In this document: piece by piece, positions 13,618 through 21,189 of the stretch
Layout: each line of letters begins with the position of its first letter
How positions within the stretch are numbered: position 1 is the stretch's first letter
NCBI GenBank assembly: GCA_034667685.1
Contig: JAXDQU010000020.1
Location: forward strand, 1-39,386
Source: Thermoplasmata archaeon
GTDB taxonomy: Archaea; Thermoplasmatota; SW-10-69-26; JACQPN01; JAJPHT01
Direction of reading: 5' to 3'
Length of the DNA stretch: 39,386 nucleotides
Translations under genes and position numbers: made by a program
Notes under the pieces: generated by a model
Databases searched by the model: none
What the model was told of the DNA's origin: nothing
The model's input: the letters and a program-made list of their open reading frames with translations, nothing else

Positions 13618-13700
13618 GTGGGGGTAGCCTAGCCCGGTAAGGCGCAGGATTGCTAATCCTGTGCTGTATCAGCTCGGGGGTTCAAATCCCCCCTCCCACG
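13618..13700 (+). tRNA. tRNA-Ser (anticodon GCT), long variable arm, CCA not encoded
   Basis: Acceptor GTGGGGG/CTCCCAC plus G discriminator; anticodon arm CAGGA-TTGCTAA-TCCTG; T arm GGGGG-TTCAAAT-CCCCC. Confidence 0.95.
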
Positions 13701-18859: not shown

Positions 18860-19710
18860 GCTTCCTCGACATCCTCCTCCACTACCAGTTCCTCCAGCGG
18901 GCGCTGCTGGCGGGCGTGCTCGTCGCGATCCTCTGCGGCATGCTCGGCGTCTTCCTCGTGCTGCGGCAGATGAGCCTCCTGGGCGACGGGCTCGCGCACG
19001 TCAGCTTCGGCGGCGTCGCCATCGGCCTCGCGTTCGGATTCTACCCCATCGGGATCGCGCTCGTGGCCAGCGTGCTCGCAGGCGTCGTCATCTACCTCCT
19101 GCGCGACCGCAACATCGTGAAGGGCGACACGGCCATCGGCATCCTCTTCACGGCCGGCCTCGCGGTGGGCATCATCGTCGTGAGCGCCACGGGCGGCTTC
19201 ACGGTGAACGCGAACAGCTACCTCTTCGGGAACATCCTCGCCATCACCGACCAGGACCTGCAGGTCGTCTTCGGCGTGGGCGCGCTCCTTGTTCTCCTCG
19301 TGTGGGCGTTCTACAAGGAGTTCTTCAGCATGACCTTCAGCGAGGAGGCTGCGAAGGTCACCGGCCTGCCCGTGGGCATGCTGAACATCGTCTTCGTGAG
19401 CCTCACCGCGGCCACCATCGTCGTCGCCAGCCGCATCGTGGGCGTCCTGCTCGTGAGCGCCCTCATCATCGTCCCCGCCGCCACGAGCCTCCAGCTCGCG
19501 CGCAGCTTCCGCGTCGCCATCGCGCTGAGCGTCGCCATCGGCGTCCTGAGCGTCGTGGCCGGCATGGTCCTCGCCGTCCAAGAAGGGTGGGCCACGGGGG
19601 CCAGCATCGCCATCGTGGCGATCGGGCTCTTCGTCCTGACGCTGGCGGGCAAGCGCGTCTTCCGCGAGCCGGTCGCCGAGCCGGAGCCGCCGGCTGGGGA
19701 CGCACGCTGA
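18856..19710 (+). CDS. znuB: Metal ABC transporter permease
   Basis: FLQRALLAG, GDGLAHVSFGG, YLFGNIL, VGVLLVSALIIVPA. Confidence 0.92.
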   Translation: MSFLDILLHYQFLQRALLAGVLVAILCGMLGVFLVLRQMSLLGDGLAHVSFGGVAIGLAFGFYPIGIALVASVLAGVVIYLLRDRNIVKGDTAIGILFTAGLAVGIIVVSATGGFTVNANSYLFGNILAITDQDLQVVFGVGALLVLLVWAFYKEFFSMTFSEEAAKVTGLPVGMLNIVFVSLTAATIVVASRIVGVLLVSALIIVPAATSLQLARSFRVAIALSVAIGVLSVVAGMVLAVQEGWATGASIAIVAIGLFVLTLAGKRVFREPVAEPEPPAGDAR

Positions 19711-19760
19711 GGCCGTGGGGCTCGCTCCCTCGGCTGGGGGGCGCCTCCCTGGGCCCCCTG

Positions 19761-19820
19761 GAACACGAAGGCACGAAGGCGCGAAGCCACGAAACTTCGT
19801 GTCTTGGTGCCTTCGTGTTC
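19761..19820. repeat. Inverted repeat (26-bp arms) with CACGAAG 8-bp units, related to the 2271 palindrome
   Basis: gaacacgaaggcacgaaggcgcgaag / cttcgtgtcttggtgccttcgtgttc. Confidence 0.88.
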
Positions 19821-19889
19821 GGGGGTTGGGGGCGGAGCCCCCGGCCCGGCCACACTCCCCAAGCATTCATATAGTGGTCCTCGCTTGGG

Positions 19890-20180
19890 CGGGCTACACC
19901 CTGAGTAGTCCAGACCAGACGCGAGGGGCAAGTCCGCAACCGGGAACGAACTCCGGACCCGCAAAAGGGTCCGAGGCACGCGCTTCGGCGCCGTTCGCTC
20001 TCGCGGATCCCCGCGCTCGATGCTGGTCGCCGCGCTCGCGCGGCGGTTCGGCGTCGAAGGAGACGTCACGGTTGGATGAAGGACGGGCTTCGGCCCGTTC
20101 GCTGATATCACGGGCAAGGCCCGCGATTCGCCAACAGAGCGCTCCGAGCGCAACTCGGAACGGCCTGGAGACGGACCGCT
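19890..20180 (+). ncRNA. Putative structured non-coding RNA / 5' leader of the rpl3 operon
   Basis: TATA-like TTCATATA at 19866; no credible ORF; multiple hairpins including two UUCG tetraloops, plus long-range helices. Confidence 0.55.
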
Positions 20181-20196
20181 CAAGGAGGAAGATACC

Positions 20197-21189
20197 ATGG
20201 GCCAGCCCCACAGACCAAAGAAGGGTTCGAAAGGCTTCTCGCCGCGCGTGCGCGCGAGCAGCCAAGTCCCCCGCATGACCTCGTGGCCGGTCGGAGGCGA
20301 CGCGCCGAAGATCCAGGGCTTCGCGGGCTACAAGGCGGGCATGACGCACGCGGTCGTCACCGACTACCGCCCCGAGTCGCTCACCAGCGGCCAGGAAGTC
20401 ACCGTCCCCGTCACCGTCGTCGAGGTGCCTCCGATGAAGGTCGCCGCGGTCCGTTACTACCGCGAGACGCCCTACGGCCTGCGCACGCTCGGCGAGCAGT
20501 GGGCGAGCGACACCGACAAGCGCCTCGGCGCGCGCCTCCCGGTCCCCAAGGCCCCGAAGGCGTTCTCGCCCGAGGCCGGCAAGGTCGACGACGTGCGCCT
20601 GCTCGCGTACACGCAGCCCAAGCTCGTGACCGGCACGCCCCGGAAGACGCCGGAGATCATGGAGCTGCGCATCGGCGGCGGCAAGATCGCCGACCGCATC
20701 GCGTTCGCCACCGAGAAGCTCGGCAAGGAGATCACGGTCGCGGACTTCACGGCCGTGGGCCAGATGATCGACGTCGCCGCGGTCACGAAGGGCCACGGCG
20801 TCAAGGGCGCGGTCCCCCGCTGGGGCGTCAAGCTCCAGGGCCACAAGGACTCGAAGAACCGCCGCGACGCCTCGCCGCTGGGTCCCTTCCAGCCCCGCTT
20901 CATCCGCTCGATGAAGGTCCCCATGCCCGGCCAGATGGGCTACCACAACCGCACCGAGTACAACAAGCGCATCCTCAAGGTCGGCACCGAGGGCGCGGAG
21001 ATCACGCCCGCCGGCGGCTTCCTCCACTACGGCGTCGTGCGCAACGGCTACCTGCTGCTCCACGGCAGCATCCCCGGTCCGGCCAAGCGCCTGATTCGCC
21101 TCCGCGAGGCGACGCGCTACCTGCGCGGCGTCGAGATCGCGGAGCCGCAGCTCGCGTACGTCAGCACCGCCAGCAAGCAGGGACGGTGA
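20197..21189 (+). CDS. rpl3: 50S ribosomal protein L3 (uL3)
   Basis: PKKGSKGFSPRVRA, FAGYKAGMTH, GQMGYHNRTEYNKRI; AGGAGG SD. Confidence 0.98.
   Translation: MGQPHRPKKGSKGFSPRVRASSQVPRMTSWPVGGDAPKIQGFAGYKAGMTHAVVTDYRPESLTSGQEVTVPVTVVEVPPMKVAAVRYYRETPYGLRTLGEQWASDTDKRLGARLPVPKAPKAFSPEAGKVDDVRLLAYTQPKLVTGTPRKTPEIMELRIGGGKIADRIAFATEKLGKEITVADFTAVGQMIDVAAVTKGHGVKGAVPRWGVKLQGHKDSKNRRDASPLGPFQPRFIRSMKVPMPGQMGYHNRTEYNKRILKVGTEGAEITPAGGFLHYGVVRNGYLLLHGSIPGPAKRLIRLREATRYLRGVEIAEPQLAYVSTASKQGR

Follow-up and report, generated by a model that had tools for sequence, protein, structure and literature searches.

We found that the DNA in front of rpl3, the first gene of a ribosomal protein operon in a Thermoplasmata archaeon, specifies a real folded non-coding RNA, and that the core of this RNA is common to most Thermoplasmatota. 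In our best reading, the rpl3-rpl4-rpl23-rpl2-rps19-rpl22-rps3 operon has this element as its 5' untranslated leader; from its position, and by analogy with known systems, we suggest that the leader is autoregulatory and binds a ribosomal protein (a probability of roughly 0.6). A preliminary description of this DNA had proposed an undescribed, multi-domain leader of the operon, and had named three findings that would speak against it: a match to a known RNA family, lack of covariation among relatives, and a transcription start close to the rpl3 ATG. None of these was made, and the results below support the proposal.

The window, the whole stretch of DNA analyzed (39,386 nt), comes from a high-GC archaeal genome of 3.48 Mb that is 99% complete. 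The leader lies in a 486-nt intergenic gap (19711-20196) between znuB, which ends at 19710, and rpl3, whose ATG is at 20197. Upstream of the gap is what we take, from reading the ORF translations, to be a zinc-uptake operon (znuA, znuC, znuB). The gene names of the rpl3-rps3 operon are likewise our reading of ORF translations, which place rpl4, rpl23, rpl2, rps19, rpl22 and rps3 in this order after rpl3. The rpl3 product (uL3) had 541 relatives by tblastn.

The gap contains a palindromic hairpin, a TATA-like box, and then approximately 300 nt without a credible gene. Roughly 320 nt without a credible ORF had been noted before rpl3. We confirmed that the gap is non-coding; its ORFs are merely frame-overlapping, as is typical of DNA with 68% GC, and the structured leader spans about 19896-20196. 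The TATA-like sequence that had been placed at 19866 was also found, and it occupies the same alignment columns in all five (5/5) genus members. The usual archaeal spacing from TATA box to start is ~26 nt, and with this spacing transcription of the rpl3 operon would begin at about 19894-19898. A scan of the locus for bacterial promoters and terminators, which is not designed for archaea, found nothing. The palindromic hairpin is long (19754-19825) and lies upstream of the TATA-like box. The main features, with the evidence for each in parentheses, are as follows.

19866..19873, + strand: TATA-like box TTCATATA, promoter of the rpl3 operon (sequence; genus alignment)
19900..19911, + strand: 5' strand of the long-range helix P0, CCUGAGUAGUCC (RNAalifold on the genus; free and constrained folds)
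19912..20075, + strand: core three-way junction (match to covariance model R2)
19913..19921, + strand: 5' strand of P1, made of P1a GACC (19913-16), unpaired A19917 and P1b GACG (19918-21) (constrained and free folds; phylum-wide alignment)
19925..20012, + strand: P2, GGGG/CCCC with a CAA bulge, then GUCCGC/GCGGAU (genus alignment; R2 match; fold)
19938-20002, + strand: branched, genus-specific insertion in P2 (~65 nt) with the CGGACCC and GCGC hairpins (genus alignment; fold)
20017..20057, + strand: P3, an expanded 41-nt hairpin in the window's genus (compensatory changes in columns 178-221 of the genus alignment)
20064..20073, + strand: 3' strand of P1, made of CGUC (20064-67), unpaired A20068 and C20069, and GGUU (20070-73) (R2 match; folds; phylum-wide alignment)
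20074..20172, + strand: lineage-specific 3' domain (covariation of the first hairpin within the genus; other parts invariant or of differing length)
20173..20185, + strand: 3' strand of P0, GGAC-C-GCUCA-A-GG, the last two G of which are the first two G of the Shine-Dalgarno sequence (RNAalifold on the genus; duplex test; folds)
20184..20188, + strand: Shine-Dalgarno sequence GGAGG, 8 nt before the ATG (sequence)
20197..21189, + strand: rpl3 (uL3), first gene of the operon (ORF and translation; tblastn)

The + strand of 19880-20196 is predicted to fold at -157.3 kcal/mol (z = -3.46), and 0 of 100 shuffled sequences folded equally well. The - strand gave z = -3.28. Because the two values are nearly equal, folding energy alone does not choose the strand.

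We found that the core of the leader is conserved well beyond the window's genus. In a blastn search of 61 related genomes with 19860-20200, the full leader was present in 4/4 same-genus genomes (71-83% identity). A short block around GACGCGAGGGGCAA was found in other families of the order, and every such block was upstream of an L3 gene. Reading the regions upstream of rpl3 revealed two near-invariant blocks, CCAGAC... and ...GUCACGG, in Methanomassiliicoccales, Methanomethylophilaceae, the DHVE2 group and many unnamed Thermoplasmatota loci. The blocks are ~70-85 nt apart in these relatives, compared to ~155 nt in the window's genus, and the core is ~85 nt long in most relatives.

Constrained folds of 69 distinct sequences gave a uniform architecture, a three-way junction. 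The closing helix, P1, consists of P1a (pattern NNNCC / GGNNN) and P1b (GACNN / NNGUC), interrupted by a near-invariant asymmetric loop (5' CC-A-NAC / 5' GUN'-AC-GG) in which one A on the 5' strand faces AC on the 3' strand. P2 is a hairpin made of GGG, a CA(A) bulge, a 3-6-bp stem and CCC. P3 is a hairpin with a loop that often ends in UUCU or UUUU, and the return strand of the junction is A-rich. Pairing of a UUCUGG in the P3 loop with CCAGA of P1 was considered and rejected, as no concerted change was seen by eye in the lineages with CCAAAC and CCAUAC.

To describe the core we used two covariance models. RNAalifold, applied to 58 cores aligned with plain MAFFT, recovered P1 alone, since this alignment did not bring P2 and P3 into register. 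The first model (R1) was therefore seeded from 14 well-aligned sequences with a hand-written structure. R1 matched 67 of 90 sources (62 of the 79 L3-anchored loci, L034-L112, and 5 of 11 sources from the window's own order), always on the + strand and once per source. In the alignment of these matches 90.9% of cells pair and 17/23 pairs change on both sides, and 0/500 shuffles reached any of the measures. The second model (R2) was built from the R1 matches. It had one match in each of 85 loci, which had been picked as likely carriers.

The helices of the core covary strongly. In the R2 alignment of 82 distinct sequences, 89.5% of cells were paired, 18/23 pairs and 300 cells changed on both sides, and the covariation score was 0.430 (shuffles, 0.141 +/- 0.007; 0/500 reached it), figures that overstate independence because the sequences were aligned to the model itself and come from related genomes. 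The signal in these sequences is large despite this. As a control, partners slid by 1-3 columns were only 29-43% paired. In the phylum-wide alignment, both sides change in 6/7 pairs of P2 and in 6/6 modelled pairs of P3 (helices 3 and 4). The CC/GG and C/G pairs of P1 never vary among the 82 sequences, and the first pair of P1b, which is beside the invariant loop, switches (GC in 62, AU in 9, UA in 7).

With filters off, cmsearch with R2 on 19700-20300 matched 19912-20075 at 20.7 bits (E = 9.7e-5 for 601 nt), and the alignment places a 79-nt insertion in P2. This 601-nt stretch with filters off was the sole setting in which the window was matched. R1 with default filters gave no match in the window at E <= 1, and on the window's own genome it gave just two matches, both elsewhere and with E of about 1. 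R2 under the stricter filters of the genome scan did not match the window's genome or 3/4 of its genus relatives. The E values of R2 for the genus relatives (L002-L005) range from 1.4e-5 to 0.012.

We found that the motif is widespread in the phylum, occurs once per genome, and is tied to rpl3. With R2 we scanned 151 Thermoplasmatota genomes that were at least 80% complete (E <= 0.01). The motif was present in 96 of the 151, in exactly one copy each, and in 70/111 of the high-quality genomes. All members of some families were positive (16/16, 17/17, 5/5). The scan did not find the motif in 55/151 genomes, including whole families (0/9, 0/3), and the motif is therefore dispensable. Some loci have short rpl3 leaders. 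Control scans with R2 gave 0/38 genomes in the phylum of a Methanocaldococcus genome and 0/5 further genomes (two Methanocaldococcus, two Bathyarchaeia and one MAG filed as Methanobacteriota). Every one of the 30 genome-scan matches that were fetched was directly upstream of an L3 gene and on the same strand. Carriers include animal-gut methanogens and marine and soil lineages. The motif would be ancient, roughly as old as the phylum.

The relation between the core and the Shine-Dalgarno sequence is also kept. Compact leaders have the Shine-Dalgarno sequence 0-6 nt behind the core, where it comes after the 3' strand of P1 or shares letters with it (examples are ACGGUUGGUGAUAUAAAAUG, ...GUAACGGUUGGUGAUAUAAAAUG and ...GUCACGGCUAAUACGAGGUGAAAAAAUAUG), and the distance from motif to ATG was 20-25 nt in five loci. 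In the genera read from the window's order, a different helix, P0, has this position, with 1-4 nt between the end of its 3' strand and the Shine-Dalgarno sequence. In the predicted folds of the window, P0 includes G20184 and G20185, the two G with which GGAGG begins, and the position of the Shine-Dalgarno sequence at the base of P0 is kept in related genera. Since P0 takes the role of P1 in the window's order, a closing helix with the ribosome-binding site at its foot is a constant of the leader across the phylum.

P0 is a long-range helix in which 19900/19902-19911 pairs with 20173-20182/85. Its two strands change in step between genera (GUAGUCU/AGACUAC, GUCGUC/GACGAC, GCAGUC/GACUGC, GUAGUCC/GGACUAC), and within the genus a single mismatch is repaired by a C-to-U change. 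In a duplex test, true partners had a mean of -12.9 kcal/mol (13 genus representatives) compared to -11.0 kcal/mol for swapped partners (all 17 sequences), and 2 of 5000 permutations were as low. Imposing P0, P1 and P2 on the leader gave a fold of -145.6 kcal/mol, a cost of 2.2 kcal/mol relative to the free optimum of -147.8 kcal/mol.

Several pairings of the preliminary description gave way to P0 and the core. The long-range helix UCCAGACC/GGCCUGGA conflicts with both P0 and P1a. A pseudoknot between GUCCG (19932) and CGGAC (20172) is replaced by nested pairing, with GGAC (20173-76) in P0 opposite GUCC (19908-11) and 19932-37 in P2. P0 is also in competition with the local hairpin GGGCUAC/GUAGUCC, which is kept only in the genus and one neighbouring genus. 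Instead of an enclosing helix GCGAGGG/CUCUCGC, relatives keep GGGG (19925-28) / CCCC (20009-12) and GUCCGC / GCGGAU, the two parts of P2.

Compared to the ~85-nt core, leaders of the window's genus have the branched insertion in P2, a 41-nt P3, and a 3' domain of ~100 nt with three hairpins. Other hairpins that had been described fall in these expansions, and in the alignment of five genus sequences they fared better. Compensatory changes preserve the pairing of CGGACCC/GGGUCCG in the P2 insertion, of a long stem at 20017-20057 that corresponds to P3, and of the hairpin GGACGGGC-UUCG-GCCCGUUC. The GCGC-UUCG-GCGC hairpin is only partly kept, and CGGGC-AAG-GCCCG is an insertion present in 3/5 members. 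UCCGAG-CGCAA-CUCGGA can be seen by eye in 5/5 sequences, with changes on one side; it is absent from the predicted pairs of the alignment. The parts of the 3' domain are the following.

20074-81, + strand: GGAUGAAG, invariant in the genus
20081-20100, + strand: hairpin GGACGGGC-UUCG-GCCCGUUC, with compensatory changes in the genus
20102-10, + strand: CUGAUAUCA
20111-20123, + strand: hairpin
20131-35, + strand: CCAAC
20143-20159, + strand: hairpin UCCGAG-CGCAA-CUCGGA, seen by eye in five genus sequences

In the genus alignment and the fold, a GUUGG/CCAAC pairing competes with P1a for U20072-U20073. With this and further pairings as competitors of P1a, the 3' half can be folded in more than one way in the window's genus. 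Overall, insertions as long as ~80 nt are accommodated by the conserved core, and the ribosome-binding site stays at the foot of the structure through a long-range helix.

The 3' domain of the window's genus might also contain a C/D-box-like kink-turn (GGAUGAAG at 20074-81 with CUGA at 20102-05) that is bound by L7Ae and adds a second layer of control, although we regard this as doubtful. The preliminary description had pointed to a GAUGA...CUGA pair, and its letters are indeed invariant in 5/5 genus members, as are both blocks. They could form a GAU bulge, tandem G.A/A.G, and then A-U and G-C pairs leading into the hairpin at 20081-20100, and archaeal mRNAs with leaders in which L7Ae binds a kink-turn are reported (PMC5539422). 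However, the letters are lost in the other genera of the family, the closest of which read GGACGAAG...CUGC or have no CUGA partner. The would-be canonical stem, GUUG/UAUC, contains a U.U mismatch and overlaps P1a, and with the hairpin in the role of the canonical stem, the standard geometry is broken by an additional A. Because all of the letters are invariant within the genus, the kink-turn is without covariation.

The leader probably lets a ribosomal protein throttle its own operon, as judged by analogy. This reading draws on the single copy before rpl3, the invariant letters of the loop and junction, the covarying helices and the kept relation to the ribosome-binding site. Three properties by which r-protein leaders are recognized were found: location in the 5' untranslated region, on the coding strand before an r-protein operon; compensatory changes, in an alignment fitted to the model; and a structure that touches the ribosome-binding site of the first gene, in compact leaders, in the window's order and in the folds of the window. 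By analogy, the ligand would be uL4, as in the bacterial S10 operon, or uL3, the product of the first gene.

We propose the following mechanism. An r-protein encoded downstream, when in excess over free rRNA, would bind the conserved loop and junction. Binding would lock P1 and, in the window's genus, also the long-range P0. With the Shine-Dalgarno sequence 0-6 nt behind the closing helix, or partly inside it, a ribosome initiating on rpl3 would be blocked or trapped, and translational coupling would lower the output of the genes behind rpl3. In the window's genus, P0 would restore this layout, with the Shine-Dalgarno sequence at the foot of the closing helix, despite the insertion in P2, the long P3 and the 3' domain.

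These results might also indicate that the leader is a sensor similar to a riboswitch, or an operator for a non-ribosomal protein. The junction would then bind such a protein or a small molecule (a growth-rate signal, a polyamine or a metal ion) and set r-protein synthesis accordingly. The near-invariant unpaired letters are concentrated in the internal loop and the junction, and the helices covary freely, which is the typical look of an aptamer; a comparison with 23S rRNA found no mimicry; and the competing pairings around GGUUGG in the window's genus could act as a switch. Nevertheless, we consider this unlikely. Riboswitch classes usually control several genes of one pathway, and this element is found only before rpl3, once per genome, and before no other class of gene, a context that points to no particular ligand. 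We know of no riboswitch that controls an r-protein operon. In addition, what would be the expression platform varies greatly among lineages, which share no more of it than a Shine-Dalgarno sequence close to the closing helix. In its most far-reaching form, the core would be a phylum-wide archaeal aptamer that senses a small growth-state signal and gates the synthesis of about half of the proteins of the large subunit, and the competing pairings at GGUUGG would be its switch. We hold this form to be a long shot; if true, ribosome production would for the first time be seen under the control of a riboswitch.

We found no resemblance of the leader to known RNA families. At gathering scores, a search of the whole window with Rfam 15 (4227 models) returned only a tRNA at 13618-13700, and the leader was unmatched. 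At E <= 10, 19600-20300 gave seven matches at the level of chance, to microRNA, sRNA and snoRNA families and to one cis-regulatory family, with E from 0.86 to 8.8 and all far below gathering. Ten compact relatives of the motif gave 0 matches at E <= 1. RNase P RNA, which the preliminary description had named as an example of a match that would speak against its proposal, was rejected as a candidate: the genome's copy of RF00373 is elsewhere (C52:11169-11539, 86.2 bits), and none was found in 19600-20300 at E <= 10. Archaeal SRP RNA (RF01857) was rejected as well, with the genome's copy at C8:42602-42914 (154.7 bits) and none in the leader.

It is thus extremely improbable that the leader is a divergent copy of a large known RNA, such as RNase P RNA or SRP RNA, or a chance structure in a GC-rich spacer. 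Its size (about 290 nt) and high GC content would fit these explanations, the - strand folds almost as well as the + strand, and AAGUCCGC has what we take to be a resemblance to the conserved letters of P4 in RNase P RNA. However, both of the large RNAs are on other contigs of the same genome, Rfam at E <= 10 yields chance-level matches alone, and with the covariation and the phylum-wide position of the single copy, chance is ruled out.

We looked for rRNA mimicry, which has been found in many, though not all, r-protein operators. The comparison covered 23S rRNA. When R2 was run without filters against the 23S rRNA locus of the genome (L115), the best E was 0.75, with only the outer 5 pairs matched, and blastn-short and word scans against the genome's 23S rRNA gave only words of 7-12 nt. 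One shared word, GGGCAAUCCG at 23S position 252, was rejected as a site of mimicry: it belongs to a conserved rRNA segment and does not follow P2 in other genomes. The GGGCAA word of 23S rRNA does not change in step with P2 in the four genomes compared. The absence of resemblance to 23S rRNA neither supports nor excludes the reading as an r-protein leader.

Contigs from RNA libraries are compatible with a transcribed leader that is continuous with rpl3, although DNA carry-over is possible. Ten public RNA runs contained small shares (0.05-0.12) of the sampled words. We aligned the contigs of four RNA runs at 90% identity or higher; their source is relatives that are 90-95% identical, and contigs show neither ends nor levels. 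One contig covers 19912-20158, another covers 19925-20110, and a third runs from the leader into rpl3 (20125-20583). One contig has only three conserved blocks, with other letters replacing two variable inserts. No contig of the four runs covered 19600-19907, where the relatives are not syntenic. The contigs gave no sign of a transcription start next to the ATG, which according to the preliminary description would have spoken against its proposal; as these are contigs, with possible DNA carry-over in the libraries, this is a weak indication.

At 19911/19912, where the core has its 5' edge, contigs from two studies stop without a loose end, and in library X10 the leader blocks alone are covered. 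An end at 19911/19912 would leave the 5' strand of P0 outside the RNA. The shared edge hints at best weakly at a site where the RNA starts or is processed. Such a site would fit a structural 5' element that acts without feedback, as a stabilizer that shields the long r-protein mRNA against 5' decay, a processing signal that directs its cleavage, or a stable RNA released from the leader, and the coverage of library X10 is a second weak hint in this direction from contigs that carry no information on levels. We think such an element improbable. A stabilizer needs neither near-invariant loop letters throughout the phylum nor a fixed relation to the Shine-Dalgarno sequence. The 5' strand of P0, outside the 19911 edge, covaries with its partner and should therefore belong to the functional RNA, and one contig continues from the leader into rpl3.

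The r-protein leader that we propose can be compared to known systems. To our knowledge, few cis-regulatory RNAs are known in archaea, and beyond the case of L1 the balance between r-protein and rRNA synthesis is largely untested there. The E. coli S10 operon leader is autoregulated by L4, through NusA-dependent transcription attenuation and translational control of the first gene. Both leaders are structured and precede a cluster with L3-L4-L23-L2-S19-L22-S3, and the feedback proposed here is by analogy with the E. coli system. In contrast, the S10 system is bacterial and starts with S10, and the structure here is a three-way junction rather than the hairpins of the S10 leader. None of the r-leader families in Rfam matched the window or the 10 compact relatives. 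The Methanococcus L1 operator on the L1-L10-L12 mRNA acts by translational feedback, and its site is a small mimic of the L1 site on 23S rRNA. Like that operator, the leader would be an archaeal structured site near the start of an operon mRNA, with r-protein feedback as the proposed function. Unlike it, the motif is larger and branched, and no 23S mimicry was detected.

The closest reported candidate in archaea is the L4 r-leader of Archaeoglobi, which is upstream of rplC-rplD-rplW-rplB and was graded '?' by its authors (Eckert and Weinberg 2020, PMC7247131). In the portion of that paper available to us, L4 is proposed as ligand from prior bacterial knowledge only, and the candidate is listed as the sole archaeal leader for the rpl3-rpl4 operon; Thermoplasma and Methanomassiliicoccales have 0 occurrences each in the main text. 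As described there, the candidate shares with our leader an archaeal host, the same position in the operon and a ligand proposed by bacterial analogy. It differs in coming from another archaeal class, and cmscan gave no match to it here, with its presence in the searched Rfam unconfirmed. In the genus 3' domain, GAUGA...CUGA flank a hairpin, as in the L7Ae kink-turn leaders (PMC5539422); unlike in those leaders, the letters are lost outside the genus, the geometry is non-standard, and they are in a side domain rather than in the core. A full-text literature search, in which PMC7247131 was covered by its main text, returned no description of the motif. We conclude that the motif represents a new family of RNA, belonging to a functional class that is already known.

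A reading more modest than that of an aptamer, yet also new, is that the leader would be the first feedback operator of the L3-L4 operon in archaea that is open to experiment. It would be about as old as the phylum, and the contacts of its ligand would define a protein-RNA interface that is not copied from rRNA. The motif is suited to follow-up in being broad, single-copy and strictly tied to rpl3, with enough covariation for description at the level of a family. The motif loci include records titled Methanomassiliicoccus, Candidatus Methanoplasma and DHVE2-group archaea, so that binding and reporter tests look feasible with cultured relatives.

We found that the core element of the rpl3 leader, the three-way-junction motif formed by helices P1, P2 and P3, has been lost, or was never acquired, in some lineages of the Thermoplasmatota. 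This follows from one group of Thermoplasmatota loci (L040, L046, L072, L078, L090, L095 and L109), in which the rpl3 leader is short and the core motif is absent. In this short leader, TTTATATATG...TTTGGGTAAAAG, approximately 35 nt separate the TATA box and the start.

One part of the core is present twice in three loci of a single family of Thermoplasmatota. The leaders of these loci (L152, L153 and L154) contain an extra hairpin, GGGGCAAUGC...GCAACCCC, between the core and rpl3, and this hairpin is a copy of the P2 module. Its duplication here suggests that P2 acts as an independent binding module.

The leader also varies on the 3' side of the core. Loci of the Methanomethylophilaceae type (e.g., L043, L060, L069 and L116) have a second strongly conserved hairpin, GCGAGGUUAGCGAAGAnACCCUCGC, immediately 5' of the AGG...AUG start region, and a related block, UUAGCGAAAGAGAG, is retained in Methanomassiliicoccaceae loci. 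This element belongs to the same rpl3 leader, as a 3' domain specific to the lineage. Within the genus of the window, four of the five members (L002-L005) contain a perfect 10-nt palindrome, CUGAUAUCAG, at the place equivalent to 20102-20111, where the window itself reads CUGAUAUCAC. The site overlaps the D-box-like CUGA. The palindrome could fold into a tight hairpin, serve for dimerisation or act at the DNA level.

Two further features lie outside the leader:

19754-19825, long palindromic hairpin in the spacer that separates znuB from the rpl3 promoter
13618-13700, tRNA gene (Rfam, 60.7 bits)

The hairpin, upstream of the TATA box, is a member of a dispersed repeat family. A blastn search with 19750-19830 gave 70 matches in the same genome (73-100% identity, on many contigs), a count that includes both strands of each palindrome. 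The family resembles REP or miniature inverted-repeat elements. The tRNA has a 12-nt extra stretch at the position of the variable arm and is probably a long-variable-arm tRNA.
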